A DNA stretch of 34,903 nt from Candidatus Parcubacteria bacterium. GTDB lineage: Bacteria; Patescibacteriota; Minisyncoccia; Phycocordibacterales; UBA918. Below, piece after piece: positions 1,313 through 22,316 of this stretch. Positions within the stretch are counted from its first letter, which is position 1. Each line of letters opens with the position of its first letter. The stretch lies in contig JBJOPW010000012.1 of assembly GCA_046050355.1 (NCBI GenBank), positions 1 to 34,903 of the forward strand, read 5' to 3'. A program made the position numbers and the translations under genes. The notes below the pieces were generated by a model. The model saw only the letters and a program-made list of their open reading frames with translations. It was not told the origin of the DNA and did no database searches.

Positions 1313-1437
1313 TAAAGTGTGTCAAAAATCGTCGCAGACAAGGAAGGTAAATGAGGAAATATGAGGCGTATTACATATACGATGAATGTTTCCGATTGCA
1401 ACCTGACGCAGGATCCGGCGATTTTGGGCACACTTTA
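1313..1437 (+). repeat. ~123-nt hairpin element, copy A (MITE/BOX-like or structured RNA)
   Basis: Imperfect terminal inverted repeats aaagtgtgtcaaaaatcgtcg / cggcgattttgggcacacttt; core GAGGCGTAT-loop-ATACGATGA shared with the copies at 13429 and 22195. Confidence 0.8.
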
Positions 1438-3123
1438 TTTTCGATAGAGTGCTCTTACGAGGCGAATGAGGTCGTATCCATACTGCTCACCAGTGGCTTC
1501 GTAGAGTGGCTTTAGTTTTTCGTCGCCGTGCTCCTTGATGGCTTTGACAATATCAGCTTCGCCCACCCCATCAGGATCAAGCTCACGCACTGCCCGGGTC
1601 AAATCATCGGCAGTGAGTTCCCCACCCTCCACAAGCTTATCAATATGTTCAATAATAGTACCAATCGCTATCTCGCGCTCTTTGGCAATTGCCTTGAGTG
1701 TCTTGCCGTCTAGCCAACGCAGTTTTGTTTCTTCGTAGGTCGAGAGTTTTTTTACCCGTTCCTTGACCGCACGCTTCCCGGCCACAATCACGGTATCGGC
1801 AGACGGGAGCTTGCCACCAAGGGCCGTCACAAATTGCGTATGGAGAGTAAAGAGCTCCTCGTCTGGCATCGAGAGGAAGGTATCTTCGGCCGTCTCTGAG
1901 TCAGCACGGAATTGTTTGTCTTTGTTCACGACCTTCGGGTCGACCTGGAGGGCATTTGGGTGCATCCCGAGAATCTTTAGTCCCGCCAGCGAGCGCACAC
2001 GCGATAATGCCACGTACCCCTGCCCAAAGACAAAAGCCCGTGAGAGATCCACCTCCGCCGCATCAAGACTCATCCCCTGCGATTTGTGCACTGTGATAGC
2101 CCAGGCGAGACGTAGTGGATACTGTTCAATAGACGCTTTCATCTTGCCATCTTCAATGACGTCCCAGGTGGTCGTCTCCATGACAATCTTCCGTCCTTCG
2201 GTGGTTTCGATAATCGGTTGTCCGCCGGCATCAAAGGCGGTGACGCGCGCCAAGGTACCGTTCACATACCCTGCTTCAAAATTATTCTTGGTACACATCA
2301 CCATGGCCTCTTCTTTCAAGGTCAATGTCTCGGGTGAGAGGCAGTTCTTTACCAATACTTCAAGCAGTGGCTTACTCCCCCGCCCAGACATAGTGTACGT
2401 GCGCGCCCGACCCGGCAGCGCCGCGAGCTTTGTGGCATTGACCGCATCAACATCCGCATTGTGCGTGTAAAGGCGGGTTGGTTCGATACCCTCGTACGCT
2501 ATATCCGTCTGCTCATTTAAGAGCGTGTAATGGTCTTCTTCAATTTCGTTGCGACGAATTGAGGTCAGGAGTGAGAGCAAGAGCTCATCCTCCTGCCGAT
2601 GTTGCTCGGTGAGGTAGCAGACGAGCGGTCGTGCTTCGAGCCACGCGCGTGATTCAAACGCGTAGCGCATCATGTCCCCCTGCCGTGTCACTGGTGGCAA
2701 CTGAAAGAAGTCCCCGACAAATATCACCTGCAGTCCCCCAAAGGCGTCCTTGCGCTGGCGAATGGTCCGGCAGATGACATCCACCATATCAAGGAGCTTC
2801 CCATCGAGCATGGAGATTTCATCAATCACGAGCACCTTCGCTTTCTTCACCCGCTTCACGGTGGCTTCGCGTGAGACGATTTGATCAAGGTCGTACTGGG
2901 TCAAGGTATCGCGGGCACCAGCCCCACTCCAGGAGTGGATGGTCATTCCCCCGATGTGAGTGGCGGCAATACCGGTAGACGCGGTCACCGCCACCGAGAG
3001 CCCGCAAGCTTCGAGCCAGGCAATGTACTGGTTGATGACATACGTCTTCCCTGCTCCCGGCTCACCGGTGAGGAAGACATTGGCACCGGTTTTGAGGATA
3101 TCAAGTGCCCGCGCTTGGTTCAT
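1435..3123 (-). CDS. PIF1/RecD-like SF1B DNA helicase with a C-terminal helix-turn-helix domain
   Basis: Walker A TGEPGAGKT, TASTGIAA, DEISM, GDFFQLPPV, QYPLRLAWAITVHKSQGMSLD, GQGYVALSR; C-terminal STYEET...IAKEREIAIGTIIEH. Confidence 0.92.
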   Translation of the reverse strand: MNQARALDILKTGANVFLTGEPGAGKTYVINQYIAWLEACGLSVAVTASTGIAATHIGGMTIHSWSGAGARDTLTQYDLDQIVSREATVKRVKKAKVLVIDEISMLDGKLLDMVDVICRTIRQRKDAFGGLQVIFVGDFFQLPPVTRQGDMMRYAFESRAWLEARPLVCYLTEQHRQEDELLLSLLTSIRRNEIEEDHYTLLNEQTDIAYEGIEPTRLYTHNADVDAVNATKLAALPGRARTYTMSGRGSKPLLEVLVKNCLSPETLTLKEEAMVMCTKNNFEAGYVNGTLARVTAFDAGGQPIIETTEGRKIVMETTTWDVIEDGKMKASIEQYPLRLAWAITVHKSQGMSLDAAEVDLSRAFVFGQGYVALSRVRSLAGLKILGMHPNALQVDPKVVNKDKQFRADSETAEDTFLSMPDEELFTLHTQFVTALGGKLPSADTVIVAGKRAVKERVKKLSTYEETKLRWLDGKTLKAIAKEREIAIGTIIEHIDKLVEGGELTADDLTRAVRELDPDGVGEADIVKAIKEHGDEKLKPLYEATGEQYGYDLIRLVRALYRK

Positions 3124-3156
3124 AGTTTGCTGATTATAGCATACAAACCAATACTA

Positions 3157-3185
3157 TTGACTTATACACAATAATGTACTATAAT
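3157..3185 (+). promoter_or_regulatory. Sigma70 promoter for the 3222/3519 pair, divergent from the helicase promoter
   Basis: TTGACT-17 bp-TATAAT; on the minus strand TGcTATAAT lies 9 nt before the helicase ATG. Confidence 0.75.
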
Positions 3186-3221
3186 ATATGTAGCCCTGAA
3201 ACTTCGGAACTGGAGAAGAGT

Positions 3222-3479
3222 ATGAAAGCGACTTCGAGAATTGCAGCCTGCCTGATCGGGATCGGGACACTGGTCATTGCCACGGCAAGCACGGCCGATG
3301 GCCCTGCCCCGCACGGGTACCTGCTCAACGTGTGGTCTGGACTCACCACCGATCAGACCCATGGCATGCTCGCGTTCGAGGGCGAAAACGCCTACGAACG
3401 CTGCAAAGCAGCGGAAGCGGCGATGAAAGCGTACCACCCTCGTTTCGACAACAAGTTCACCGTCTGCATTCCCTTCTAG
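3222..3479 (+). CDS. Small secreted hypothetical protein
   Basis: GGAGAAG SD before the ATG at 3222; signal peptide MKATSRIAACLIGIGTLVIATASTA; two Cys in the mature part. Confidence 0.7.
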   Translation: MKATSRIAACLIGIGTLVIATASTADGPAPHGYLLNVWSGLTTDQTHGMLAFEGENAYERCKAAEAAMKAYHPRFDNKFTVCIPF

Positions 3480-3518
3480 GGATTTGCTAGATCCACTGCC
3501 CTTTGCGGAGATCTCCAA

Positions 3519-3827
3519 ATGAAAAAGTTGCTCGCTCTTTGCTTCCTCATGCTCCTGGCCGGATGCAAGGAAGAAACTGGTCGCAAGCCCGTCGGTGAGC
3601 CGACCATCACCACCGGCGAGCGCTCGTGTTCTGTTCCCGGGTTCTGCTTCCGCTTTGCCATGAACAGCAAAGGTGACATGAGCTACGGGTACGGCTACAG
3701 TGCCTTCTGCTCCGGCAAGCAAACCGCCACTGAAAAGAAAACGGTCTACGAGATCATGTACAGCGACGGAACCTCCGAAAGGCTTCCGCACAGCGAAACG
3801 ATCTCGGCAAGTTCTTGCAAGCAGTGA
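3519..3827 (+). CDS. Small Cys-rich lipoprotein
   Basis: MKKLLALCFLMLLAGC lipobox; GGAG SD; four more Cys; terminator follows. Confidence 0.78.
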   Translation: MKKLLALCFLMLLAGCKEETGRKPVGEPTITTGERSCSVPGFCFRFAMNSKGDMSYGYGYSAFCSGKQTATEKKTVYEIMYSDGTSERLPHSETISASSCKQ

Positions 3828-3840
3828 CCAACACCAATCG

Positions 3841-3871
3841 ATCGCCCGACACTCCGTGCCGGGCGATTTTT
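3841..3871 (+). terminator. Intrinsic terminator
   Basis: atcgcccg.cac-tcc-gtg.cgggcgat stem followed by a T run. Confidence 0.7.
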
Positions 3872-3956
3872 AATAACCTGAAAGAATTTTTAATTCACAC
3901 TTTAGAAATAAATTTCTACCGAAAAAAATCAACGCTGCGGTATACTACTTCTATAT

Positions 3957-6032
3957 ATGGCATTGCGTTCTTTAACTGTCGTGGATATCGACGAAGCACC
4001 TACTAGAAAGCGTAAAGTAGCGACCCCTAAAAAAGTCGCTCCCAAAGCAAAAAAGCGCCCAAATCTCGAAGCGACGACTGTCGACCCGGATTTGTACGTC
4101 AGTGCCGAAACCACCGAAAAAGAAAGTATTACGCTGCCAACCAAAGCCAAAGTCAAAAAAGCTTCTGACAAAAAAGCCGTGGTGAAAAAAGTCGCTGTCA
4201 AAAAGACCAAGGCAACAAAAACTGCAGTTGCGGTGACCACGAGTGAGCCTGAAACAGAAGCCCATCATGACCACGAGCACCCACCTCTCTCATGGGTGCC
4301 GTCTCGCCCGCTCTCTGGCAAAGACAAAATCGCCATCAAGCGTCACCCGCTTGGTCACCTTCTCCTTGAGAAGAAACTCCGTGAAGCCGGCTTCCGTGGC
4401 GGTATTAGTAGTGATAAAAAAGTGCTCGAAAAGTACAGTACTGACGAGAGTATCTTTCATATTCGTCCACAGATTGTTATCCAACCAAAAGACCGTAAGG
4501 ATGTCGAAACCGCCGTGAAGCTGATTGCAGTTGAAACCAAGCGCTTCACCTCCCTCTCCCTCACCCCACGTGCGGCTGGTACCGGTCTCTCCGGCGGATC
4601 ACTCACCGACTCAATCGTGATTGATGTCGCACCACACCTCACCCATATTCACGAAGCGAAGAGCACCCCTGAGGGTGGAACTATCGTCTGTGAACCAGGC
4701 GCGATGTGGCGTGATGTCGAAAAGAAACTCAAGAAAGTTGATTCGTACATTCCGTCATACACCTCATCAAAAGATATCTGTACTATTGGCGGCGCTATCG
4801 CGAACAACGCTGCTGGTCCTGACTCACTCCGCTACGGGCACTGTGCTGAGTGGGTGGACTCGATGGATGTGGTGCTCCATGATGGTAATACGTACACGCT
4901 GCGTCCCCTCTCGTACAAGGAGTTCAAATCACTGGTGAAGGAAAAGCATGCCTACGCGCGGATTGCACGTGAAGTCTTTGCCCTGATAGAAAAGAATGAA
5001 TCCCTCATCGAAAACGGGCGACCAAAAACTGCCAAGAACTCGGCCGGCTACGCGCTTTGGGATGTGATCTCGACCACCGTCGCAGATTTCAAGGCTGGTA
5101 AAGGCACGTTCGACCTCGGTCGTATCATCTCTGGTAGTCAGGGAACGGTGGGTGTGATTGTTGGTCTCACCATCAAGGCGATCAAGATTCAAAAGAATAC
5201 CACGCTTATTGCCCTTCCCCTCTTTAAGCTCGAAGATGCCGCGAAGTCAATTGTGACCGCACTCAAGTACAATCCGATCAATGTCGAAATCTTTGACGCC
5301 CTTACTTTTGACCTCGCGCTCAAGAACCCCGACTTCTTCAAGGCTCGCCTCCAGGGCATGGACTACTACAAAGTCATCCTTTCGATGTACACGACATTCC
5401 ATATCCGCTTTGGTCGTCAGACTCCAGAGTTCACTATCCTCATCACCCTCGACGAAGCCACTACAAAAGAGACTCCGGCCCAAGAAATCGCTGCGAAGGT
5501 CTCAGCGCCCGGAGCTAAGGCCCGCGTCATCAAAAACCCAAGTGAAGTCGAGATGTTCCTCCAGATTCGTCGTGCGAGCTTTTCACTCTCAAAGCTCCTT
5601 GATCCGGAGAAGCGTCCCGCGGCCTTCCTCGAAGATATGACTGTCCCCCCAGAAAATCTTGGCAAATTCTTTATGGAAATCAAGTCCCTCTTTAAGGAGT
5701 TTAATGTGAAGTCTGCCATCCACGGTCACGGGGGCAATGGTCACTTCCACTTCTATCCGCTTCTCGACTTCACGAAGGCCAACACCCCACTTCTGATCGA
5801 ACGCATGGCCGAACGTTTCTACAACACGGCAGTAAAATACAAGGGTAATATCTGTGGCGAGCACAACGACGGCATCATCCGCACTCCCCACCTCTCAAAA
5901 ATATTCAAAAAGCCTGTCCTTGATCTCTTCACGAAGACCGAAGCAATATTCGACCCCGACGACATCTTCAACCCGGGCAAAAAAGTAAACCCTCGTTTTG
6001 ATATCAAAGAATCAATCCGACATACAAACTAG
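3957..6032 (+). CDS. FAD-binding oxidoreductase (GlcD/D-lactate dehydrogenase-like, FAD_binding_4 + FAD-oxidase_C) with a Lys-rich N-terminal extension
   Basis: YSTDESIF..RPQIV..PK, PRAAGTGLSGGS, CTIGGAIANNAAG..SLRYG, GSQGTVG, FLEDMTVP, GHGGNGHFH, GEHNDG, FDPDDIFNPGK. Confidence 0.9.
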   Translation: MALRSLTVVDIDEAPTRKRKVATPKKVAPKAKKRPNLEATTVDPDLYVSAETTEKESITLPTKAKVKKASDKKAVVKKVAVKKTKATKTAVAVTTSEPETEAHHDHEHPPLSWVPSRPLSGKDKIAIKRHPLGHLLLEKKLREAGFRGGISSDKKVLEKYSTDESIFHIRPQIVIQPKDRKDVETAVKLIAVETKRFTSLSLTPRAAGTGLSGGSLTDSIVIDVAPHLTHIHEAKSTPEGGTIVCEPGAMWRDVEKKLKKVDSYIPSYTSSKDICTIGGAIANNAAGPDSLRYGHCAEWVDSMDVVLHDGNTYTLRPLSYKEFKSLVKEKHAYARIAREVFALIEKNESLIENGRPKTAKNSAGYALWDVISTTVADFKAGKGTFDLGRIISGSQGTVGVIVGLTIKAIKIQKNTTLIALPLFKLEDAAKSIVTALKYNPINVEIFDALTFDLALKNPDFFKARLQGMDYYKVILSMYTTFHIRFGRQTPEFTILITLDEATTKETPAQEIAAKVSAPGAKARVIKNPSEVEMFLQIRRASFSLSKLLDPEKRPAAFLEDMTVPPENLGKFFMEIKSLFKEFNVKSAIHGHGGNGHFHFYPLLDFTKANTPLLIERMAERFYNTAVKYKGNICGEHNDGIIRTPHLSKIFKKPVLDLFTKTEAIFDPDDIFNPGKKVNPRFDIKESIRHTN

Positions 6033-6048
6033 TACAGAATAATAGACG

Positions 6049-6078
6049 AGCCCGCGCAGTTTCCCGCGCGGGCTTTTC
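6049..6078. terminator. Terminator between convergent genes
   Basis: agcccgcgc / gcgcgggct stem followed by tttt. Confidence 0.7.
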
Positions 6079-6100
6079 GTTATCTATAGCTTCTGGAAGT

Positions 6101-6499
6101 TCATGCCTTCAGTTCGATGGATTCGACGTAAACGGCATGCAACTCAACCCGCTTTTGCACAGTACCCAGCAGCCATCGCAAGTTATTCGCCTCGAATGTT
6201 AACGAGCTGACGAAGAACAAGCGGTTAGCATTGCCGAGGTCCTGCTGAACACAGAACCCAGTGTCAGTGGTCTCCCATATCTTGCTGATGAGACCTGAAG
6301 CGGGCTCGTCTCGAACCGCGAGATGAGCTGGCACTACCGACCACACGGTAACGTCATAGTAACCAGCTTCTCCAGCATTCCGTGCAAGCCGAATGGTGCA
6401 AAGAACTTCTTCATGGGCCGTAGTAGTTGTGGTCAGAACCGGCAGTTTGCCGGAGAACACGCGACCGCAGTCGCGAAGAATCGTAAAACTAAGCGACAT
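6101..6499 (-). CDS. Hypothetical protein (ORFan cassette)
   Basis: 132-aa ORF, AGGAAGGGG SD, TAGTAT -10 upstream, hairpin downstream. Confidence 0.6.
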   Translation of the reverse strand: MSLSFTILRDCGRVFSGKLPVLTTTTTAHEEVLCTIRLARNAGEAGYYDVTVWSVVPAHLAVRDEPASGLISKIWETTDTGFCVQQDLGNANRLFFVSSLTFEANNLRWLLGTVQKRVELHAVYVESIELKA

Positions 6500-6571
6500 G
6501 GGTCACCCCTTTCCTTTCCTAATCTCATACTACCCCGTATGACCAAAAGCGCAAGTAATCAAAAATGAGTA

Positions 6572-6596
6572 CAACCCCGTATGGAATACGGGGTTG
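6572..6596 (-). terminator. Hairpin terminator of 6598-6969
   Basis: caaccccgtat-gga-atacggggttg directly after the stop codon. Confidence 0.65.
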
Positions 6597-6597
6597 C

Positions 6598-6969
6598 TTA
6601 GTCTGTCTTTTCGCACATGAGGTGCTGTGCTAGCTGCCGCAAAAGCGGCAGGTACCGGGTCGAGCGGTGACCTACCTCCAAGGAGATCGGGTAGTCCGGT
6701 CGGAAGCGAAAGATGAGCCACCGAAAGCCGATTAGCCCAAGCGCATACTCCGGGTCTGGGAGATAGCACTCCTCCGCCAGCTGTCGAAACGTCTTGGTTC
6801 GCCGCCAGGTTTGGTCGACCCACTGCAGAGGCGCATCCCACCACTCCGCCTGTCCGTAGTACAGCTGCCGCGGCACCATCACGTGGAATGTAGGCAAAGA
6901 CGGCATCATACAATATGTCATGACACGGTCACGACTGATATGCGCGAGTCGGCAATCGATGTATAGCAT
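6598..6969 (-). CDS. Hypothetical protein (ORFan cassette)
   Basis: 123-aa ORF, AAAGGAGG SD, TTGCAA-17-TAGGAT promoter. Confidence 0.65.
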   Translation of the reverse strand: MLYIDCRLAHISRDRVMTYCMMPSLPTFHVMVPRQLYYGQAEWWDAPLQWVDQTWRRTKTFRQLAEECYLPDPEYALGLIGFRWLIFRFRPDYPISLEVGHRSTRYLPLLRQLAQHLMCEKTD

Positions 6970-7047
6970 TGTCTTTCCCTCCTTTCGCTGCTGAAGTCAC
7001 TACATGTCTACTCCTATCCTACCGCCAAGAATTGTTTTTGCAACCAT

Positions 7048-7091
7048 CAAACGAAAGCGGGCGCGCGAGGGATATTCTCCTCGCGCGCCCG
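7048..7091 (-). terminator. Intrinsic terminator of 7096-7584
   Basis: 13-bp stem cgggcgcgcgagg / cctcgcgcgcccg with a T-rich tail on the minus strand. Confidence 0.72.
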
Positions 7092-7095
7092 TGCT

Positions 7096-7584
7096 TCACG
7101 CCCGGCCAGCTGTGGGCAAGTTGATGAGTCTCACATCAGCTTCTGAATTGCCAATCTCATGGCAAAACTCTTTCCCGATTGCCAGAAGTGAATCGAGGCC
7201 GCTGCGAATCATGCCGTCGACGAGATCGACATCAAATTCTTCAGCGTCTTCACTGAACATAGAGTCCCGCCATACCACCAAACCCAGCTCATGGTTGTAA
7301 ATGAGGGCACCGTAGCACATCTCCGTGTCGATTCTACCAATACGTCGATATGCATCCAGCTCATCTAGCGGGTTCGGGAACTCTAGCACCAAAGCGAGAG
7401 TCAGCGTAAGAGGCACCTTAATCGTCGCGGTGCCGCTGTACATTTGACCTTGGTAAACGAAGTGGAATTCGATACTTTGCACATCAGTCCGCCACTCATA
7501 GTCTTGGCCATGCTCATTCACCCAGCCAATAAGAGCCTCAAGCGGCGCAGACCATGCCTCCTCGTCTTCCTCATCAGTGTTCAT
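7096..7584 (-). CDS. YbjN-like (type III secretion chaperone-like fold) acidic protein
   Basis: Size, acidity and the pattern PLE.L...D..W...I..EM.YG.L.Y...G.VVWR.S...PTAGRA resemble alphaproteobacterial YbjN-domain proteins (recalled, not searched); AGGGG SD. Confidence 0.55.
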   Translation of the reverse strand: MNTDEEDEEAWSAPLEALIGWVNEHGQDYEWRTDVQSIEFHFVYQGQMYSGTATIKVPLTLTLALVLEFPNPLDELDAYRRIGRIDTEMCYGALIYNHELGLVVWRDSMFSEDAEEFDVDLVDGMIRSGLDSLLAIGKEFCHEIGNSEADVRLINLPTAGRA

Positions 7585-7724
7585 AGCAATCCCCTATGTC
7601 ATGCTTCCACCGGGTAGCCTACGCCATCTTTTTGTAACTGTCCACGACCCCTTCCCTTTTTCTCAATTCTCTGCTATAAATATGGGCACTTTTCGCCCCC
7701 AAAGCGCAGAAGTACAAATGAATA

Positions 7725-7754
7725 TTGACCAAGCCCGTCTAACGCTAGGATAAT
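7725..7754 (+). promoter_or_regulatory. Candidate sigma70 promoter for tRNA-Glu
   Basis: TTGACC-18 bp-GATAAT about 105 nt upstream of the tRNA. Confidence 0.45.
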
Positions 7755-7859
7755 GAAAGAGTATGGGATACTCTTTCATCCGCAGGGAAAGTTTTCATCA
7801 ATGAAAACCTGACAGGTAGGTTCAAAAAAGCAGAAATGCATTGAGGAAAAAAGAATATT

Positions 7860-7931
7860 GGCCCTATCGTCTAACGGCTAGGACATCAGGTTTTCATCCT
7901 GGAAATCGGAGTTCGATTCTCCGTAGGGTCA
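7860..7931 (+). tRNA. tRNA-Glu (TTC), CCA not encoded
   Basis: Acceptor GGCCCTA/TAGGGTC-A; D arm CGTCTAACGGCTAGGAC; anticodon arm TCAGG-TT-TTC-AT-CCTGG; T arm CGGAG-TTCGATT-CTCCG. Confidence 0.96.
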
Positions 7932-7938
7932 CGCGATT

Positions 7939-13343: not shown

Positions 13344-13376
13344 GTAAAGCCATGGCGCGAAGTGCCATGGCTTTAC
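13344..13376. terminator. Hairpin terminator downstream of murF
   Basis: gtaaagccatggcgc-gaa-gtgccatggctttac. Confidence 0.7.
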
Positions 13377-13428: not shown

Positions 13429-13553
13429 CTAAAAGTGAAGAAATTGGCTTAGATTCGCGGCGCCGAGGAGTTGCAAAGGAGACGTACAATGGTACGGTGA
13501 CTCCCACAACGACGCTGGCAACAAAGAAGATGAGCTAATTTATTTGCTTTTAG
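13429..13553 (+). repeat. ~123-nt hairpin element, copy C
   Basis: Terminal inverted repeats ctaaaagtgaagaaattggctta / tgagctaatttatttgcttttag; core GAGACGTAC-aatg-GTACGGTGA. Confidence 0.8.
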
Positions 13554-13557: not shown

Positions 13558-14847
13558 TTAACGGCGTTTCCAAGCGGTGTCTTGGCGCACAAGTAGCTCC
13601 CCCGCCCGCTCCGGCTCCGCCATTATCTCCTCAATGACTCGTTCCGCACGCACCCCTTGTGAACCCTTTACCAGTATAACGTCACCGGGTTTAATTAATT
13701 GCTGTAGTTCTCGACCAGCCGTTACCGAATCTTCGTATTGGTATATCTGCTTTTCGGAGAGACCGTGTTCTAGCGCCCCTTCAGCTGTCTTGCGCGAACG
13801 CACACCAATCGTTACGAGTATATCGACAGCTCCTGCTGCGACAGCACCGATACGTTCATGTTCACGAGTAGAGAACTGACCAAGTTCAAGCATGTCACCA
13901 AGCACCGCAATTTTACGATTAAAACCGCGCAACTCCTTTAGTGTCTGGAGTGAGGTCTCCACTGCCGTGGGTGAAGAATTGTAGGTATCATCAAGAATAC
14001 AGGTGGCTTTAATTCCTGGAATTACCCGCATACGCCCGACTGGACCAATGTGTGATTTGACCGCTTCAGCAACCGCCGATAGCGGAATATCAAACTGCGC
14101 TGCCACCGCAGCGGCCGCACTATAGGTGTACGCGTTTTGTATACCAATTGAGCCATTTACTTTAAAAGTGACCGCTTCATCAAGATGCGTGATAGTGAAT
14201 TGCGAACCAACCGGAATATCATCGCGATAGATTATCTCATCGGCTGCGGCGGTAAACTGTGACGGTGCATACCGACTAAAGCCCACACTCGGCTGACGAA
14301 CAGTAGCTACCGCTGCTAGTAACTTAGCGTCATCATGGTTATAAACAAAGACCCCATCTGGCTTTAACGCTCGTACGAGTGCGAGTTTCTCTTCAGCAAC
14401 TGCTTCTGGTGTACTAAAATATTCCACATGCACCGGTACGTCTGGTAGACGAGTGATCACCGCTATATCGGGCTTCAACCAGGCTGTGAGTGACTTCATG
14501 TCACCAGGGCGATCCACCCCCGCCTCAAGCACAAGTACCTCTGGATAATTTCGACTAAAAACAGCAATGAAAAATCCCTCAACAATATTCGCCAACCAAC
14601 CAAATGGATTGTCCCAGGCATTTGGCAACCCGAGAATAGACAACGGCACGCCGATTTCAGAATTAAAACTTTTCTCACTTTTTCTAGTTTTGCGATACTG
14701 TTTTAAGACAGCGAAGATCGCGTCTTTGGTTGATGTTTTGCCAACACTACCAGTGACCGCAATCACAATTGGCCTAGTGCGACGCAGTAATAGCTTGGCC
14801 TCAAAAGTCAAAATAGTATAGACAATGGTCTTAAAAGTAGCTTTCAT
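13558..14847 (-). CDS. murF: UDP-N-acetylmuramoyl-tripeptide--D-alanyl-D-alanine ligase
   Basis: AVTGSVGKTSTK, SFNSEIGVP, DDTYNSSP, VLGDMLELG, LVKGSQG; position in the dcw cluster. Confidence 0.92.
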   Translation of the reverse strand: MKATFKTIVYTILTFEAKLLLRRTRPIVIAVTGSVGKTSTKDAIFAVLKQYRKTRKSEKSFNSEIGVPLSILGLPNAWDNPFGWLANIVEGFFIAVFSRNYPEVLVLEAGVDRPGDMKSLTAWLKPDIAVITRLPDVPVHVEYFSTPEAVAEEKLALVRALKPDGVFVYNHDDAKLLAAVATVRQPSVGFSRYAPSQFTAAADEIIYRDDIPVGSQFTITHLDEAVTFKVNGSIGIQNAYTYSAAAAVAAQFDIPLSAVAEAVKSHIGPVGRMRVIPGIKATCILDDTYNSSPTAVETSLQTLKELRGFNRKIAVLGDMLELGQFSTREHERIGAVAAGAVDILVTIGVRSRKTAEGALEHGLSEKQIYQYEDSVTAGRELQQLIKPGDVILVKGSQGVRAERVIEEIMAEPERAGELLVRQDTAWKRR

Positions 14848-14956: not shown

Positions 14957-16675
14957 CTAACGGTCAGGAGGAATATTGTAGTAATTAATCAAAAAGGTGG
15001 TCAAATCCATAAACGGCTCAGTCAGGGTTTCAGACGCATATTGCACCCCTTTTGGTTCTACAGTATACAGGAAAACTATAAATTGTGGGTCATACGCTGG
15101 AAAGTAACCAAAAAACGAGTGCAGGTAACGATCGTCATAATACCCACCAGATGGTTTAGCTATTTGTGCGGTTCCCGTTTTAGCTGCCACTGTATGGTGC
15201 GGAAGCGCCACCTTACCACCACGAAGGGCTTCATCTACGACCGTAGTGAGCATACGAGAGATCGTCTCACTGGTTTCTGGAGTAAACACCTGCGTCCCAT
15301 CGGGATACTGAATATCTTTCTCAGTACCGTCGGTGTACTCGATACGCTTCACCAGGTGTGGTGTAACGAGATGTCCACCATTACCCAGTGTTGCGAGCGC
15401 CCGCACGGTTGCGATTGGTGTCATTGCAATCCCCTGTCCAAAAGATGCGGTTGCATACTCTACCTCACGCGGCGATTCTAGGTTAGAGACCAAGCCACTC
15501 GCTTCGTTAGGAACATCAATCCCCGACTCACTGCCGAGCTTGAGGTTCGTGAAGTACTCGCGGAAGCGCTTGTGCCCCATGAGTCCTACTATATGTGCCA
15601 CACCAGTGTTCAAGGATTGATTAAGTACCTCTTGCATATCAACCGTCCCTCGACCTTTGCCGTCGAAGTTTTTGATTGTAAAGGTGTTGAGCTCGAGAAA
15701 GCCTGGGTCGTAGTATGTCGATGCTGGAGTAATCACTTTGCTATCCAAGCCAGCTGCGACAGTAAGCGCTTTTACGATAGAACCCATCTCGTAGACGTTT
15801 TCAACGAGAGGATTTTGAAATAGCTCAATACTCGCATCGGCACGGTTGTTTGGGTCATAAGTTGGTACGGCATTAAGGGCCCGGATTTCACCGGTCTGTG
15901 GATCCATAATAATCCCAGCAGTGAGTGCACTATTGTACTTTGTCTGGGTTTCACTGAGCACCCGATCAAGCATCCGAGCAACCGTTGGTTCAATCGTGGT
16001 GACAATATCGCCGTGTTTTTTGGTATCACCATCAAATACCAAATGTCCAAGATTACTAAAAATTTCAGCAAAAAAATTCACCGAGAGTGCCGCTTCATCA
16101 CGAAAGAGAATATCGTCGTAAGCATACTCAAGTCCATACTTACCACGCTCAATGGTGCTGGCATCATCAAACCCAATAAAGCCAATGCTCCGTGCGCCAA
16201 CTTCATGACCCGGGTAATAGCGCCACTGCATCCGATAGAGTTCAACCCCTGCAAGGGCCAAAGCTTCAATGAGCGGCGCCTCTTGTTCAGTAACCCGTGG
16301 GTTAATCTCTACGTACGTACGATTGGGTAACGTCGCCTTACGCACAAATTCGGCCTGATCAAGAGCGATAAATGGATCGAGTTTCTCGTAGAGGGCGTCA
16401 GCATCAGTGATGACAGTGGGGTTCACCGCGAGTACATACCCCGATTTCATGCTAGCCGCCCCTACTTTTTCTCCATCTTTTGTTGTGTAATAAATGGTGC
16501 CACGATCAAAAATATCTTCCGCTGTATTGACGTATTGCTTACGTGCGCGTTCCTGGTAGGCTGCTCCTTCTACCAACTGCACATAATATAACCGTACTAT
16601 GAGTAATAGCCCCAGTACTAAAATGAACCCAGTGATGACACGTATCCGACCAGGGGTTGAGGCCACACTTCGCAT
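14957..16675 (-). CDS. ftsI: Class B penicillin-binding protein (FtsI/PBP3)
   Basis: TM anchor, RGTIY, YEMGSIVK (SxxK), SLN (SxN), KTGTAQ; follows mraZ-rsmH-ftsL; start at MRSVAST preferred. Confidence 0.9.
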   Translation of the reverse strand: MRSVASTPGRIRVITGFILVLGLLLIVRLYYVQLVEGAAYQERARKQYVNTAEDIFDRGTIYYTTKDGEKVGAASMKSGYVLAVNPTVITDADALYEKLDPFIALDQAEFVRKATLPNRTYVEINPRVTEQEAPLIEALALAGVELYRMQWRYYPGHEVGARSIGFIGFDDASTIERGKYGLEYAYDDILFRDEAALSVNFFAEIFSNLGHLVFDGDTKKHGDIVTTIEPTVARMLDRVLSETQTKYNSALTAGIIMDPQTGEIRALNAVPTYDPNNRADASIELFQNPLVENVYEMGSIVKALTVAAGLDSKVITPASTYYDPGFLELNTFTIKNFDGKGRGTVDMQEVLNQSLNTGVAHIVGLMGHKRFREYFTNLKLGSESGIDVPNEASGLVSNLESPREVEYATASFGQGIAMTPIATVRALATLGNGGHLVTPHLVKRIEYTDGTEKDIQYPDGTQVFTPETSETISRMLTTVVDEALRGGKVALPHHTVAAKTGTAQIAKPSGGYYDDRYLHSFFGYFPAYDPQFIVFLYTVEPKGVQYASETLTEPFMDLTTFLINYYNIPPDR

Positions 16676-16676
16676 A

Positions 16677-17012
16677 TTATTCGCTACCAGTACGTGACAA
16701 TGCCACCGCAGCTGGTACACGAGTCACAAAGATTTTTTCGTTTGTTTCTGTGAGAGACACTGCGTTTGCGATCCGCTCACTGACGGCATGCTGCGCTTCA
16801 ATATACGTTGACTCAAGAGCCGAGATTTCTGACTCCAGCTGACGCGCCTCTTGATGTGATTCTTTTCGAAACACGACATGCACCACAGACATAGACAAGA
16901 AGTACATGTAGGCCACCACCAACACAAACACCACCACCGATAGTACCGTTACCCAAAAAGCTGGGTTTTTGTATGGCACTGTATGGAAACTGACAATCTG
17001 ATGGCGACTCAT
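16677..17012 (-). CDS. ftsL: FtsL-like cell division protein
   Basis: One TM helix plus a heptad coiled coil, located between rsmH and ftsI; assigned by synteny. Confidence 0.62.
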   Translation of the reverse strand: MSRHQIVSFHTVPYKNPAFWVTVLSVVVFVLVVAYMYFLSMSVVHVVFRKESHQEARQLESEISALESTYIEAQHAVSERIANAVSLTETNEKIFVTRVPAAVALSRTGSE

Positions 17013-17019
17013 AATGTAT

Positions 17020-17910
17020 CTAGCTAATTTTTTCAATAACGCGGAGTTTGGCGCTGCGGGCGCGGGGATTCATTTTGAGCTCTGCCTCGCTCGCAATGAT
17101 TGGTTTTTTGGTAACCAAGACACCTTTTTGATCATGTTCGAAAGCTTTAAACGCAAGCTTTACAATGCGGTCTTCTAAACTATGGAAGGAAATGATGGCG
17201 AGCCGTCCACCCGGTGCTAGATGCATAAAGGCACTTTTGATGAACAGTTCCAGGGCCTCGAATTCATCGTTCACCGCGATGCGCAAACCCTGAAATGACT
17301 TCGTGGCTGGGTGAGTTTTGCCGTGGCGATATGGTGCCGGTACGGCGGCATCGATGATAGTAGCGAGCTCCTTGCCGGTCTTGATCGGACCTTTTGTCCG
17401 TGCCTCAATGATGGCTTTGGCAATACGACGCGAGTAATGTTCTTCGCCATAGGCGTAGATCACGTTTGCGATATCAACCTCATCCCAATCGTTGACAATG
17501 TCATACGCGGTGAAGGCATAGTCGCGGGCGTCACCGTACGTCATAGCGAGACCAACCTCATCATTAAAGGAGAAACCTCTCCCCGCTTCGATGAATTGGT
17601 CGGTACGCCACCCAAGGTCAGCGAGGATTGCATCGATGCTTCCTATTCCCCGCTCGGCCAACACCTCGTCAAGCTGACGAAAGTTGGCATGTACGAGGTC
17701 AATAGTAGCGGCACCCTTGAGGCTACCCTTGGCAGCTTCGATAGCCTGCACATCAGCATCAAAGCCGATATAACGTCCATCTTTGCCGAGCACCTTTAGT
17801 ATCTCGCGCGCATGGCCACCCGCTCCTAAGGTCGCATCTACAACGACGCTCGCCGGTCTAAGGGCGAGCGCGTCGACAGCTTCCGATTGTAAAACGGTAA
17901 TATGCTCCAT
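17020..17910 (-). CDS. rsmH: 16S rRNA m4C1402 methyltransferase
   Basis: HITVL, VDATLGAGGH, DLG, RGFSF, HPATKSFQGLRIAVN, ISFHSLEDRIVK, NPRARSAKLR. Confidence 0.97.
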   Translation of the reverse strand: MEHITVLQSEAVDALALRPASVVVDATLGAGGHAREILKVLGKDGRYIGFDADVQAIEAAKGSLKGAATIDLVHANFRQLDEVLAERGIGSIDAILADLGWRTDQFIEAGRGFSFNDEVGLAMTYGDARDYAFTAYDIVNDWDEVDIANVIYAYGEEHYSRRIAKAIIEARTKGPIKTGKELATIIDAAVPAPYRHGKTHPATKSFQGLRIAVNDEFEALELFIKSAFMHLAPGGRLAIISFHSLEDRIVKLAFKAFEHDQKGVLVTKKPIIASEAELKMNPRARSAKLRVIEKIS

Positions 17911-17954
17911 GCGCTCTTTCCATAGTTATGAAGAGGTTGAAATTCTAGACAGTC

Positions 17955-18389
17955 CTACAGTACCCCGATATCCGAGAGCTTCTCCGCGAGGGAGTCAGCC
18001 TGCATCTCGATTTTGGCGACGTACTCTGTCCAGCGATTATCATCCCAAATTTCTACACGATCATGGATTCCGGCGAGCACGACTTTACTTTCGAGCTTCG
18101 CAAAATCCTTCAAGAAATCTGGAACGAGAATTCGTCCAACACTATCCACCTCCACTTCCACTGCACCGGATAGAAAGAAGCGATTAAAACTTCGTGTGTC
18201 CGCGCTTCCGAGTGGGAGTTGACCGATTTTGTCGGTTATTTTCTCCCACTCGGCCTGCGGATACACAAAGAGACAGTTATCAAGACCTCGAGTAACAATC
18301 ACCGTTGATCCAAGTTCCTTCCGCCATTTTGACGGTAAGGACAGCCGTTTCTTAGGATCAAGTGTGTGGCGATATTCCCCGATTAACAT
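17955..18389 (-). CDS. mraZ: Transcriptional regulator MraZ
   Basis: MLIGEYRHTLDPKKRLSLP, TRGLDNCL, DSVGRILVP, RVEIW. Confidence 0.97.
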   Translation of the reverse strand: MLIGEYRHTLDPKKRLSLPSKWRKELGSTVIVTRGLDNCLFVYPQAEWEKITDKIGQLPLGSADTRSFNRFFLSGAVEVEVDSVGRILVPDFLKDFAKLESKVVLAGIHDRVEIWDDNRWTEYVAKIEMQADSLAEKLSDIGVL

Positions 18390-18503
18390 ATGTTTTGTCT
18401 TGATAGCTCTCCACTTCCATCCCTGACACCAGCCACCATCGGTGGAGCGATGCTGACTGCTGTCAGAGATAGTTGTGGATCTGTCTAGAACTTGCGTTCT
18501 ATA

Positions 18504-18559
18504 CCACTATCTCCCACCACAACTACACTATACACCACTTCATCCCACCAACAAGCCAC
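18504..18559 (-). promoter_or_regulatory. MraZ-box-like GTGG direct repeats over the dcw promoter
   Basis: CCAC (GTGG on the minus strand) at 18504, 18514, 18535, 18545 and 18556, a 10-11 bp period, overlapping a TATAGT -10. Confidence 0.72.
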
Positions 18560-18683
18560 TTGTGCACACATTGTGGGGATTCTTTGGTGCAGACAACAAA
18601 AAAGCCTCGGTGTGTTTCGAGAGCTAAAAAAGTTGAGGGGCAAATTTCGCCCCTCATACTCTGTTCTGTACCGTGCGACCAGT

Positions 18684-19019
18684 TTAGTCTTGGTCATCAT
18701 CCTCAATGACGGCTACAACCGCCCAGTCGGCGCGTAGCTCGTAGTACTGTGCATCGCGAGGCATCTTCTTTTGCCACTCAGGCAAACCTTTCATGACTGC
18801 CCAGAAGACTTCATGCAGCATGTGATATCTGGTGCGGTGACCCTTGCGTTTGAGCGACACGTACCGTATCACATACCCTTGAAGGTGCTCAGGAACCTTC
18901 AAGCGAGTTATAGCTGGCGGCGATGAGGCCGATACAATCGGGCATGGGTGCGGGCCAGGATTGCGCCTCGCCTTCTCTGCATCCCGGTTTACTGCCCTGA
19001 TAAGCTTCGTGTTTCGCAT
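18684..19019 (-). CDS. Basic hypothetical protein (ORFan cassette)
   Basis: GGAGTG SD before MRNTKL; hairpins downstream at about 18600-18657. Confidence 0.55.
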   Translation of the reverse strand: MRNTKLIRAVNRDAEKARRNPGPHPCPIVSASSPPAITRLKVPEHLQGYVIRYVSLKRKGHRTRYHMLHEVFWAVMKGLPEWQKKMPRDAQYYELRADWAVVAVIEDDDQD

Positions 19020-19129
19020 GACATCACTCCGATTGTCATAGTTGAGGTGGAACAATTTATTCAAGAGTAACATACAAGATAAAAGTAGTTTTGTACAGAA
19101 TTTGCCGACAAGGAAAAAAGTCGGTCTAT

Positions 19130-19996
19130 TTAGAAAAAGATTTTGTACAAACCAACGAGACCAACTATTACTGCAATCACTCGCATTGATACACGAATGA
19201 GATGTTCGTTTGGTTGATGGATAGTGAGGAGGGCTGGTAACAGAATACTTAAAAAAACGAGGTTTGCGGCCAGATCGAACCCGCGATCTACGTACCAGAG
19301 CACAATGCCGCTGCTCGCTAAAATCGCTACCAGAAGTGTACTCTTCCTTGGTCCCAGCATAACAGCAAAAGTTTTTTCGCCAGTGGCTTTATCAACGGTG
19401 TAATCACGTAACGTACCGAGAGCATGGAGACACACAGCAAACAGAGCCAGTATGTAGGCAGCATTTGGTAATAGTGCCAGTGGTTGCACGAGCCAATACC
19501 CGGCTCCGTACATACAAATTACATACACAAAACCAGAGAACAAAACATCAAGTCCAGCACGACTTTTGAGCCGAATTGGTGGTACTGAATAAACTACACT
19601 GGCCAGTAAAACAAATACTGTAAAGATAAAACCATACCACCCGAGAGCATAACTACTGATACCAAACAGTAAAGCCGCTGCCAATCCAACTCCAGTTCGT
19701 ATGGAGCGAATAGAATCTAGATCAGCAATGCCACCATCAAGTCGACTCCGCTTGGTATCATGCCTGTCGCTATGAACATCAGTCAGATCATTAATACCAT
19801 ACACAATCATGGTCAGTGGCCAGGTGAGCGCTGCGACAAATAACCACTCTGATATCTGCCAATCCAAGAGTTCACCACCTCCAGCCTGGTATCCCAAGAT
19901 AAAGATAACTGGTACCAACGGGTACAAGAGTGGACGAGAAGTAATAATCCAAACCTTGAGTATCCACATGGAGAAACTAACTCTCGCAAACCACAC
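19130..19996 (-). CDS. UbiA-family prenyltransferase
   Basis: SRP, GINDLTDVHSD (NDxxDxxxD), YSVPPIRLKSR, RDYTVDKATG..T.AV.LG; multiple TM helices; start may be 19969. Confidence 0.88.
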   Translation of the reverse strand: MWFARVSFSMWILKVWIITSRPLLYPLVPVIFILGYQAGGGELLDWQISEWLFVAALTWPLTMIVYGINDLTDVHSDRHDTKRSRLDGGIADLDSIRSIRTGVGLAAALLFGISSYALGWYGFIFTVFVLLASVVYSVPPIRLKSRAGLDVLFSGFVYVICMYGAGYWLVQPLALLPNAAYILALFAVCLHALGTLRDYTVDKATGEKTFAVMLGPRKSTLLVAILASSGIVLWYVDRGFDLAANLVFLSILLPALLTIHQPNEHLIRVSMRVIAVIVGLVGLYKIFF

Positions 19997-21473
19997 AATT
20001 ATCTTGAGCCAACGTGTCTTCCTCAGCTGGTTTTGGTTTCATGAGTGGGAACATCTGCGTCTCACGGAGTGGCAAGCCGGCGAGGAACGCAAACAGTCGC
20101 TCACCGAAGCCATACCCGCAGGTTGGTGGCATGCCGTACTCGAGCATTTCGACAAACTCGAAGTCCGCCATCATGGCTTCTTCATCCCCAGCCTCAAGGA
20201 GCGCCTTCTGTACTTCGAAGCGGGCACGCTGATCGTCAGGGTCATTAAGTTCACTATAACCACGACCGACTTCACTGCCGGCAATAATCGGTTGGAACAT
20301 CTCAACCGTCTCAGTACCTGGACGAGTTTTTGCTAGTGGCGCGACCAGCTTTGGATGATTAATAAGGAACGCGGGGCCAGCAATTTGTTTGCGGCAGTAC
20401 TTCCAGAGCGTATCAGTGAGGCGTTCGCGGTTTTGTCCCTCGTACTTCACGCCAAGTTCGGCCAGCTTTGCTTCCATTTCGGCTTCAGTCGCTGTATGAA
20501 TATCAATCCCCGTTTTTTCCCGGATGGTATCGGTGTAATCAATCTCCTCCCATTCGTCCGCCAGGTCAAAGGTATGACCACGCATTTCGAATTTAGTTTT
20601 ACCAAATACTTCACGTGCTATGGTGCGGTAGAGATCACGTACAAAAATCATACCATCGCGGTAATCAGCATAGGCCCAGTAGAACTCCAGGTTCGTAAAC
20701 TCCTGAAGATGTTCGGGACTGCTCCCTTCATTGCGGTAGGCCCGACCAATTTCAAACGTCTTCGGGTACCCAGCGGCCATCAGGCGCTTCTGCCAGAGTT
20801 CACCAATACAGATACGCATGTACACCGGCATATCGTAATCGTTGTGATGGGTTTTAAAGGGGCGTGCTTCAGCTCCACCAGTCGTCACTTCGATGGTTGG
20901 AGTCTCCACTTCAAGGAAGCCATGGTCAACCATAAATTGCCGTGTTACCGACCAGAACTTGGCCTTCTTCACAAAGAGATCACGTAGTTCTTGATTCAGT
21001 AAGATATCGAGATAGCGCTTGCGGTAGCGCGCTTCTTCGTCTTTGATACCAAAGTGTTCTGATGGAATCGATTCCAGTGCCTTGGTGAGGACACGCCAGG
21101 CAGTGACACCAACTGCCTTCGTCTCACGCTTAGTAACAAACGGCACACCAGTGGCTTCAATGAAGTCGCCCGCATCAATGGCGTTCGCAAAGAGATCAAA
21201 GAGGTCGTCACCAAGTTGATCTTTGGCCAAGAAGAGCTGGAGTTTTTCTGTACCATCAAAAAGGTCAACAAAGGCTGACCCACCATGAAGACGCACTGCC
21301 ATTACGCGACCAGCGATAGTCACGGGAGTACTGTCGGCAACGAGCACATCAAATTGTGCCAGGACCTCACTCCCAGTGTGAGTCTTGTTGGCCTTGGCGG
21401 TATACGGGTCCTGACCAGCCGCTCGTAATAGTTCGCGCTTTTTGCGACGCTCTTCGATAATTTCGCTCGACAT
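19977..21473 (-). CDS. lysS: Lysine--tRNA ligase (class II)
   Basis: IAGRVMA OB-fold, RYRKRYLD, FLEVETP, GGAEARPF, FEIGRAYRNEG, YSELNDP, YGMPPTCGYG; start at MSSEII after TACTAT. Confidence 0.97.
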   Translation of the reverse strand: MSSEIIEERRKKRELLRAAGQDPYTAKANKTHTGSEVLAQFDVLVADSTPVTIAGRVMAVRLHGGSAFVDLFDGTEKLQLFLAKDQLGDDLFDLFANAIDAGDFIEATGVPFVTKRETKAVGVTAWRVLTKALESIPSEHFGIKDEEARYRKRYLDILLNQELRDLFVKKAKFWSVTRQFMVDHGFLEVETPTIEVTTGGAEARPFKTHHNDYDMPVYMRICIGELWQKRLMAAGYPKTFEIGRAYRNEGSSPEHLQEFTNLEFYWAYADYRDGMIFVRDLYRTIAREVFGKTKFEMRGHTFDLADEWEEIDYTDTIREKTGIDIHTATEAEMEAKLAELGVKYEGQNRERLTDTLWKYCRKQIAGPAFLINHPKLVAPLAKTRPGTETVEMFQPIIAGSEVGRGYSELNDPDDQRARFEVQKALLEAGDEEAMMADFEFVEMLEYGMPPTCGYGFGERLFAFLAGLPLRETQMFPLMKPKPAEEDTLAQDNCVVCES

Positions 21474-21538
21474 AATATGGCTATAGTAACGCAATTTTTG
21501 CTTTTTCGAAAGAGACGCCTGGACTACAAAACCAATAT

Positions 21539-21567
21539 TTGACAATCATAACCGTTGTATATACAAT
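21539..21567 (+). promoter_or_regulatory. Sigma70 promoter of the toxin-antitoxin operon
   Basis: TTGACA-17 bp-TACAAT, ATG 9 nt later; ttgtatatacaa palindrome over the -10 is a candidate autorepression operator. Confidence 0.8.
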
Positions 21568-21576
21568 AGTTATATT

Positions 21577-21849
21577 ATGAAAACCGTCTTGAGTATCAAA
21601 ACTGATAAAGATATCAAGGATCGTGCACAGGCTTTGGCTAAGCATCTCCGCATTCCACTCTCGTTAGTTGTTAATGCGCAACTAAAGGCTTTTGTTGAGT
21701 CCGGTGAATTTACTATTAGTCGTGAACCCGAGCTTAAACCCGCTGTGATTAAAGCTCTCAATAAGGCTGCACAAGAAGTACAAACCAAAAAGAAGCTCTC
21801 CCCACGCTTTAATACTGCCAGCGAAGCCATAGATTGGCTCAATAGCTAG
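21577..21849 (+). CDS. RelB/DinJ-like antitoxin
   Basis: RHH-like KTVLSIKTDKDIKDRAQALA...LSLVVNAQL; C-terminal FNTASEAIDWL; upstream of a toxin. Confidence 0.82.
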   Translation: MKTVLSIKTDKDIKDRAQALAKHLRIPLSLVVNAQLKAFVESGEFTISREPELKPAVIKALNKAAQEVQTKKKLSPRFNTASEAIDWLNS

Positions 21850-21866
21850 CCTTACAGGCACACTCT

Positions 21867-22121
21867 ATGCACATAGAATTCCACAAAGAGTTCAAAAAGC
21901 AATACAGAAAATTGCCAAAAAAGGTACAGGCAAAATTCAATGAACGTTTAGAACTCTTCATGTCGGAACCAAACCACCCCTTACTCCATCTCCATACACT
22001 CACCGGAGCAGAGTATCCAATCGAATCTATTAATGTGACCGCTGACTACCGCGCCCTATTTCTACGCTCAAAAAATCTTATTTCATTCATTCGCATTGGT
22101 ACGCACAGTGAACTCTATTAA
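21867..22121 (+). CDS. RelE/YafQ-family mRNA interferase toxin
   Basis: FHKEFKKQYRKL, HTLTG, SINVTADYR, RIGTHSELY. Confidence 0.88.
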   Translation: MHIEFHKEFKKQYRKLPKKVQAKFNERLELFMSEPNHPLLHLHTLTGAEYPIESINVTADYRALFLRSKNLISFIRIGTHSELY

Positions 22122-22163
22122 ATAACAAAGAGCGGCACCGAAGGTGCCGCTCTTTGTTATTTA
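22119..22163. terminator. Bidirectional terminator with a 21-bp perfect stem
   Basis: taaataacaaagagcggcacc-gaa-ggtgccgctctttgttattta. Confidence 0.82.
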
Positions 22164-22194
22164 GTTTCAACTATGCACCTCCATAAGTCACTTA

Positions 22195-22316
22195 AGTTGT
22201 TCAGAAAATGTTTCAGATACAAGGCGCTTAAGTGAGGCGGAAGGAGACGTACTTACTGTACGATGACTGACGTCGAGCGTAGAGCAACGACGTAGCTAGA
22301 CATTTTATGGACAACT
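22195..22316 (+). repeat. ~123-nt hairpin element, copy B
   Basis: Terminal inverted repeats agttgttcagaaaatgttt / agacattttatggacaact; ACAAGG; core GAGACGTAC-ttact-GTACGATGA. Confidence 0.8.

Follow-up and report, generated by a model that had tools for sequence, protein, structure and literature searches.

Hairpin elements at the stop codons of a Patescibacteria genome and their relatives in other bacterial phyla

Three hairpin copies on one contig

The stretch of DNA analysed here (hereafter the window) is a whole contig (C12; 34,903 nucleotides) of a Candidatus Parcubacteria bacterium, whose genome (G000) amounts to 939,894 bases in 17 contigs and is rated 99.97% complete. It harbors three copies (A, B and C) of a hairpin element, established at the stop codons of a Pif1-like helicase gene, a Mur ligase (MurF-like) gene and greA, respectively (Table 1). 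The original prediction, made from the letters of the window, had described three copies in a single orientation, and the covariance model presented below indeed puts all of them on the plus strand. The adjoining stop codons of the helicase, murF and greA were likewise found on the minus strand where they had been expected, with the final three bases of copy A being the complement of the helicase TAA stop. Both the apical core GAGRCGTAY-loop-RTACGRTGA and the inner bulged junction are present, the latter appearing in the family consensus as CGAGGCG opposite CAACAAAG. TA had also been reported at both ends of copies A and C; this stands for copy A and is true only loosely for copy C.

Each copy is predicted to fold on the plus strand into one long hairpin, with a minimum free energy (MFE) of -46.9, -44.6 and -42.9 kcal/mol for A, B and C, respectively (z-scores of -6.7, -6.7 and -5.3), and none of 200 shuffled sequences folds as well. 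The reverse complements fold markedly worse (-30.7, -30.3 and -27.9 kcal/mol; z = -3.2 to -3.5).

Table 1. Coordinates of the hairpin elements, their adjoining genes and other features. Positions refer to the window unless a genome or contig is named; MAG, metagenome-assembled genome.
Feature	Position	Strand	Remarks
Copy A hairpin element	1312..1437 (covariance model placement 1312-1436)	+	Covariance model 93.2 bits
Copy B hairpin element	13429..13553 (covariance model placement 13429-13551)	+	Covariance model 85.1 bits
Copy C hairpin element	22193..22316	+	Covariance model 88.7 bits; same-site copies in 12 other genomes of the genus
Pif1-like helicase gene	1435..3123	-	Pfam PF05970, E 3e-34; TAA stop 1435-1437 within the end of copy A
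Mur ligase (MurF-like) gene	13558..14847	-	Pfam PF08245, PF02875; TAA stop 13558-13560, 4 nt from the end of the copy B hairpin
greA	22318..22788	-	Pfam PF03449, PF01272; TAA stop 22318-22320, 1 nt away from copy C
G+C-rich hairpin with symmetric A-run and T-run	22118..22162	.	Between toxin-like ORF (open reading frame) and copy C; direct reading
Terminator-like hairpin	13344..13376	.	About 55 nt past copy B in murF sense; then promoter-like site for the next gene
IS200-type, RAYT-like and reverse transcriptase genes (G000)	C7:24316-24675; C2:111467-111718; C1:6036-6263; C1:69263-69484; C11:1197-1826
Integron integrase matches, Rokubacteria MAG	G047:C4:13405-14292; G047:C2:13812-14555		Plus fragments

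Fold, placement and strand of the family

An nhmmer search, iterated from the three window copies until convergence, led to 42 copies in the genome (E-values from 1e-6 to 1e-20), and a covariance model built from their alignment raised the number to 48 in 940 kb, so that the many copies per genome anticipated by the original prediction are indeed there. The alignment of the 42 copies has 128 columns, is almost gapless and shows a mean column identity of 59%. The elements are single, rod-like hairpins of 122-128 nt with three conserved purine-rich internal loops. Their invariant or nearly invariant blocks, read on the strand of the model, are AGAT, CGAGGCG, GAG.CGTA(C/T)-loop-(G/A)TACG.TGA and finally CAACAAAG followed by AGAT, and the conserved loops read as tandem G·A/A·G motifs. 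In the helices between these blocks the copies differ almost totally in sequence with the pairing being kept; within the genome, variability is highest in the outer stems and conservation in the internal loops. Concerning the 42-copy alignment, 81.3% of the 1928 cells of a 46-pair structure hold standard pairs compared to 57.7% in shuffles, double changes occur in 40 of the 46 pairs, and the covariation score is 0.627 against 0.214 for shuffled alignments (0/500 reach 0.627) and at most 0.255 when the partners are slid by one to three columns. With covariation far above shuffles, here and also at the greA site (see below), the proposal that compensatory change means selection on the fold was borne out. 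A copying of the outer stems from the target DNA was rejected, because subfamilies at different loci have a common outer-stem sequence.

Placement was studied with crude ORF calls (longest non-overlapping ORFs of at least 70 codons; 1000 ORFs, 90% coding), and the genome-wide placement statistics cover the window genome only. The nearest gene end at the 3' side of the element is the stop of an opposite-strand gene in 35 of the 42 copies, and in 34 of the 42 this stop overlaps the 3' end of the element or lies within a few bases of it, the remaining one of the 35 being 128 nt off. Stop-codon placement is therefore a genome-wide feature and not a random one, as the original prediction had it. 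TAA serves as the stop at 19 of these 34 copies, TAG at 15 and TGA at none, compared to 468 TAA, 261 TAG and 123 TGA among the 852 ORFs of at least 100 codons; by our own arithmetic, the chance of zero TGA among 34 stops is p ~0.005. At the other side of the element usually lies the start of the next same-strand gene (26/42), and therefore the order in the sense of the gene is the gene itself, TAA or TAG, the reverse complement of the element, a gap, and the next gene or a terminator. A convergent gene pair on contig C6 bears two back-to-back elements, each established against the stop of its own gene and with a common hairpin between them; the orientation therefore follows the gene and not the direction of replication. 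One clear sense-oriented exception was found (C3:80557-80680). Three of the six copies detected by the covariance model only were examined, and two of the three have a convergent stop overlapping their 3' end. Copies away from any ORF end mostly still finish in YTA, thus TAR is either part of the terminus or tightly linked to it.

The elements are distinct from the terminators. In greA sense, a single base separates the TAA of the window genome from the element, and the G+C-rich hairpin with its symmetric A-runs and T-runs follows after about 35 nt; in genomes of the genus without an element at this site, a canonical hairpin-plus-T-run lies 4-20 nt after the stop. By direct reading, the hairpin past copy C is a bidirectional terminator, and a simple terminator scan made no call there. 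For copy A, the next ATG lies 40 nt beyond in gene sense, and at convergent gene pairs a terminator is located between the neighbouring gene and the element. The element being itself an intrinsic terminator was rejected, since none of the window-genome copies is directly followed by a T-run in gene sense and separate terminator hairpins lie downstream. As the element is located between the stop and the terminator or the next gene, it should be co-transcribed in the 3' untranslated region (UTR) or in an intra-operon spacer. Copy C and the bidirectional hairpin also separate greA from a convergent small ORF at 21867-22121 (+), which shows weak matches (25 bits) to the ParE/YafQ toxin families; a 90 aa ORF just upstream of it, at 21577-21849 (+), could be an antitoxin.

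Regarding the strand on which the structure is maintained, the mean MFE of the 42 copies with flanks is -55.3 kcal/mol on the model strand and -39.3 kcal/mol on its complement. Paired cells comprise 228 G·U against 71 A·C, and one near-apex pair is G·U in 39 of the 42 copies; on the mRNA strand the conserved purine loops become pyrimidine mismatches and each G·U becomes A·C. The model strand was more stable in all nine strand pairs from other lineages with RNA parameters and in all five pairs folded with DNA parameters, and the gene-sense strand of these lineages still folds (z = -4.4 to -10.1). The GC skew is negative along the whole plus strand of the window, and therefore the model strand probably serves as template for the leading strand; if the exposed strand were subject to a deamination bias, an asymmetry in the other direction would be expected. 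From these data we conclude that it is the antisense strand of the gene whose fold is under selection, either as DNA or as RNA.

Occurrence across genomes and comparison with known repeats

Extended to relatives of the window genome, as the original prediction had proposed, the covariance model matches all 24 other sampled genomes of the genus, with at least two to at least 80 matches each; these counts are lower bounds, since 86 candidates were scored per genome. Only one of 16 other families of the order gave a match, as did 10 of 150 additional genomes from the phylum (≥80% complete, E ≤1e-5, 23 candidates scored per genome). An exact-pattern scan covering a single genome of each species gave more than 119 stretches, and 80 loci were then scored with the covariance model, resulting in 96 matches at E ≤0.01, 86 of which span all 125 model positions (46-114 bits). 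The record titles of the matching loci name at least 10 lineages. Among the matches listed, the titles include Paceibacteria, Kaiserbacteria, Saccharibacteria and Campbellbacteria within the Patescibacteria, and otherwise Rokubacteria/Methylomirabilota, Acidobacteriota, Deltaproteobacteria, Binatia, Limnocylindria, Verrucomicrobiia, Planctomycetia, Omnitrophota, Geobacter and Syntrophaceae. The GC content of the element ranges from 0.29 to 0.73 across the 80 loci, the same loop bases are invariant in a 23-copy cross-lineage alignment, and the outer stems of a GC-rich subfamily are conserved across lineages. Distinct subfamilies track the GC content of their hosts, which counts against wholesale contamination. 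On the whole-genome level, the model matches a Rokubacteria MAG (4.7 Mb) at least 70 times, a Kaiserbacteria MAG (1.2 Mb) 64 times, a Saccharibacteria MAG (0.6 Mb) 44 times, an Acidoferrum MAG 14 times and a Deltaproteobacteria MAG twice. One copy with a GC content of 0.71 (L110) lies in a MAG labelled Nitrosocosmicus, an archaeon of an AT-rich genus, and its contig may be mis-binned.

The same placement is seen outside the window genome. After 11 of the 96 matches were dropped (nine partial or weak, one cut by the end of its locus and one of 188 nt with an insertion), an opposite-strand ORF of at least 60 codons was found to end from -12 to +9 nt of the 3' end in 50 of the 85 remaining copies, compared to 20 of 85 in a mirror-image control. 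The stops at these copies are TAG (26), TAA (15) and TGA (9), despite the high GC content of many of the genomes. Of 17 Rokubacteria-type copies, 11 have a gene-proximal flank starting with TA and four a distal flank ending with it, and therefore TAR stands beside one end of the element and a TA duplication is not indicated.

Orthologous sites were compared for occupancy, and the empty sites that the original prediction had suggested looking for do exist. Thirteen of the 30 genomes of the genus compared carry an element at the greA site (a 31st gave no locus), among them the six whose GreA is closest to that of the window genome, and the downstream flank is common to several of the filled genomes, suggesting a single old insertion followed by losses or gains. 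An alignment of eleven greA-site copies and a neighbouring one is 89.8% paired and shows double changes at 34 of the 46 pairs (0/500 shuffles); it was fitted to the covariance model and is hence biased towards the structure of the latter. Helicase-site and murF-site copies are also present in the nearest genome, with 78-83% DNA identity. Same-site copies being diverged yet paired, the copies of the window lineage are therefore old and drifting under structural constraint. In the Rokubacteria MAG, two copies on different contigs differ at few positions, one of the differences being a G-C to C-G swap, and these near-identical copies indicate recent amplification. Tandem pairs of elements in the same orientation were found directly after one stop and before the terminator in three genomes (L204, G002:C22:8414-8663; L205, G024:C27:10120-10377; L105:5210-5461), an arrangement expected from repeated insertion at a stop codon.

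A few copies present additional sequences. The greA-site copy at L164:1979-2184 (G018) has an apical insertion of about 81 nt, which may represent another small element nested inside the hairpin element. A copy of a Methylomirabilota MAG (L112:3975-4165) carries an insertion of about 50 nt in its 3' arm and is sense-oriented, with a TAG stop on one side and the TAAGGAG-ATG of the following gene on the other. No fewer than five Rokubacteria-type loci (L044, L070, L081, L086 and L051), of which two belong to the same MAG, have a fragment of about 20 nt just 5' of the full element. These fragments resemble the gene-proximal terminus of an inverted copy, are preceded by CTAG, and a long ORF of the model strand ends inside them.

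The family appears to be undescribed. A tRNA gene at 7860-7931 (+; 58.8 bits) is the sole match of the window to Rfam 15 at the gathering threshold, five copies of the element had no matches at E ≤10, and six GC-rich loci matched only tRNA at E ≤0.1, so that no Rfam 15 family corresponds to it. Keyword and motif-word searches of the literature found no description of the family, MITE (miniature inverted-repeat transposable element) catalogues in supplements being outside their scope; judging by their titles, the motif-word hits concern unrelated subjects. The accessible portions of PMC4853749 and PMC11602168 mention neither a placement at stop codons nor Patescibacteria. PMC12584367 (in the part available) deals with a group II intron located in the groEL stop codon and is unrelated. 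Resemblances to group II intron domain V, hammerhead and hairpin ribozymes, SRP RNA and dif/Xer sites were also set aside, as the bulges or motifs that define them are not visible.

The closest resemblance is with repetitive extragenic palindromes (REPs) and the REPINs formed by them. The hairpins of REPINs reportedly show compensatory evolution. Like REPs and REPINs, the element is a high-copy extragenic palindrome downstream of ORFs, between co-directional or convergent genes, with a hairpin kept by compensatory change, long vertical persistence and inverted or tandem dimers. As far as the available part of PMC3733652 describes them, REPs are short palindromic units (20-40 nt) with a GTAG or CGTC terminal tag, flanking ORFs often take their TAG stop codon from the GTAG-type termini, and REP-type repeats located downstream of ORFs are considered to function as RNA elements; contact of palindromic repeats with stop codons is therefore not new in kind. 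The element differs in being one rod of 125 nt with three internal loops, instead of 20-40-nt units or REP doublets, in its tag (TAA/TAG, or CTAG in the GC-rich subfamily, and not GTAG or CGTC), and in that Y1 genes are neither flanked by it nor co-occur with it. Its architecture also spans phyla, whereas REP families are usually lineage-specific. What is new here is the single 125-nt architecture with three conserved loops and its conservation across phyla, together with the near-fixed orientation and the fold on the antisense strand.

ERIC/IRU, Correia (NEMIS) and similar MITE-like repeats are single long imperfect palindromes of 100-170 nt, which are intergenic, transcribed and have TA ends, and for which orientation-dependent effects on the mRNA are expected; the hosts of ERIC are Enterobacteria and Vibrio. 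The element is like them in size, palindromic shape, intergenic transcribed location and TA ends, and comparable effects on the mRNA would be expected. It differs in host range, in having termini as its least conserved part, in being placed exactly at the stop and in its nearly fixed orientation. The attC sites of integrons, finally, share with it a conserved structure with variable sequence, a position directly after the stop of an ORF and a fold on the strand antisense to the ORF. In contrast to them, the Patescibacteria carriers have no integron integrase, cassette arrays are missing and it is housekeeping genes that precede the elements; by direct reading, the hairpin has a variable base that seems to lack conserved core sites.

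Mobility, host role and rival explanations

The original prediction left open whether the copies represent a mobile element targeting stop codons or a recurrent structured RNA. We favor the former, with a host role also being possible: the family most likely consists of non-autonomous, REPIN/ERIC-like mobile hairpin elements distributed across phyla at TAA/TAG stops and kept under single-strand structural selection, a reading in which we place middling confidence. Signs of mobility are the variable copy number within the genus, the patchy occurrence in the order and phylum, the presence or absence of a copy at the greA site and the tandem copies, together with the near-identical copies of the Rokubacteria MAG. 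Under such a model, the element would move, or be recognised, in single-stranded form as the hairpin of the mRNA-complementary strand, which bears the three conserved tandem-G·A-type purine loops and tolerates G·U (G·T) and not A·C. Insertion would take place beside TA(A/G), with no clear target duplication, in the short neutral gap from the stop to the terminator or next gene. Inserted copies would persist through speciation, with the helices drifting and the pairing kept, and would be co-transcribed in the 3' UTR as a weaker complementary hairpin, which may protect or process the 3' end of the mRNA.

Several observations weigh against mobility. Searches for Y1 domains, reverse transcriptases and integron integrases found no transposase partner. 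Y1 (IS200/RAYT) domains occur in 16 of the 24 genomes of the genus, and also in nine of the 16 other families of the order, in none of which nine an element was found; they are absent in some carriers (e.g., G010), the one other family of the order with an element match had no Y1 match, and an element lies within about 1.5 kb at only one of 12 Y1 loci. The original prediction had suggested a copy flanking a transposase as a sign of mobility, and no such copy was found at the Y1 loci. Reverse transcriptases were detected in only six of the 24 genomes. The folded strand is neither the mRNA nor, for genes co-oriented with replication, the lagging-strand template, which misfits the IS200/RAYT model. 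No gene-flanking half-elements were seen among the covariance model matches listed, and the exact-pattern scan of viral contigs gave no matches, so that no carriage by phages was seen. The copies of the window genome are old, as their mean column identity implies, and no fresh insertion junction was seen, the closest genomes being about 78-83% identical in DNA. Structure kept at orthologous sites points to selection at the locus, which would not be predicted for a purely selfish element, and the cross-phylum breadth rests on record titles of MAGs, some of whose bins may be wrong.

The window genome itself encodes one IS200-type gene, three distant RAYT-like genes (211-236 aa) and one reverse transcriptase gene (Table 1). 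Two of the RAYT-like proteins were scanned and reached 41.5 and 41.7 bits, below the cut-off of 80, and no hairpin element adjoins the Y1 loci of this genome.

The main rival is a host function, in which the elements are cis-acting 3'-UTR modules whose hairpin in the mRNA blocks 3' exonucleases, defines a processing site or modulates termination or recycling, their spread being secondary. The co-transcription expected from the position between stop and terminator or next gene speaks for such a module, and so do the structure kept by greA-site copies across species, the retention of about 6 kb in a streamlined genome of 940 kb, the good folding of the gene-sense strand and the RNA role considered for downstream REP-type repeats (PMC3733652, as available to us). 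Nevertheless, it is the strand absent from the mRNA that bears the purine loops, the invariant G·U pair and the excess of G·U over A·C (228 vs. 71), and occupancy is patchy both for a single gene (greA) and across lineages, so no gene needs the element. We consider this explanation unlikely on its own, and it may coexist with that of a mobile element.

A classical TA-targeting MITE of a DDE transposase (IS630/Tc1-like) would have its terminal inverted repeats in the outer stem, with selection leaving only the insertions into the TA of stop codons. TA at the gene-proximal end of nearly all copies and at both ends of some, the complete avoidance of TGA stops in the window genome and the conserved outer stems of the GC-rich subfamily all agree with it. 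Variable outer stems and conserved loops are, however, the reverse of what a transposase binding terminal inverted repeats would lead to, the proximal and distal TA frequencies (11/17 vs. 4/17) do not support a TA duplication, and a symmetric TA target leaves the orientation bias of about 34:1 unexplained. No parent insertion sequence turned up, and no search aimed at DDE families was made. Taken together, we regard a DDE-mobilised origin as improbable.

Still less probable is an attC-like site, in which a tyrosine recombinase would recognise the folded bottom-strand hairpin 3' of an ORF, the sites being dispersed singletons. The logic is that of the integron attC (variable sequence, conserved hairpin after the stop, folded strand antisense), and one carrier, the Rokubacteria MAG G047, does encode integron integrases above the curated TIGR02249 cut-off of 265 (423.7 and 353.3 bits), being the only one to do so. 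Four Patescibacteria carriers (G000, G007, G050 and G051), the window genome among them, have only Xer-like matches of about 45 bits, no element arrays lie beside the integrases of G047 (five scattered elements of mixed orientation in 98 kb), and the base of the hairpin is variable and by direct reading seems to lack attC core sites. Independent small RNA genes or insulators, in which the model strand would be transcribed antisense to the 3' end of the gene and the RNA would bind a protein or stop antisense transcription, are just as hard to credit: the model strand shows the traits of a functional RNA (conserved purine-rich loops, G·U pairs, tandem G·A), but no promoter-like site lies upstream of copies A, B and C on that strand (a weak test), no T-run follows the hairpin, a terminator stands between the neighbouring gene and the element at convergent pairs, and forty-eight genes for one small RNA in 940 kb would be extraordinary.

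The placement and strand rules fit none of the mobilisation models tested, and so point to an unknown enzyme or host pathway. As a tentative and rather doubtful extension of the mobile-element reading, the purine loops on the antisense strand might be the docking platform of a putative, widespread, single-strand-specific recombinase or host factor, which would place the hairpin exactly 3' of TAA/TAG and always in one orientation. If true, this would be a stop-codon-directed insertion system common to Patescibacteria, Rokubacteria, Acidobacteriota and Deltaproteobacteria, with an attC-like logic and without an integron or known transposase. If mobile, the family would be among the few small bacterial repeat families with one structure across distant phyla. 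It makes up about 0.6% of the DNA in ultra-small Patescibacteria genomes, for which the covariance model is a ready annotation marker, and it offers a clean natural data set for studies of compensatory evolution. As the elements follow housekeeping genes like greA, murF and the helicase, the family probably shapes their 3' UTRs.

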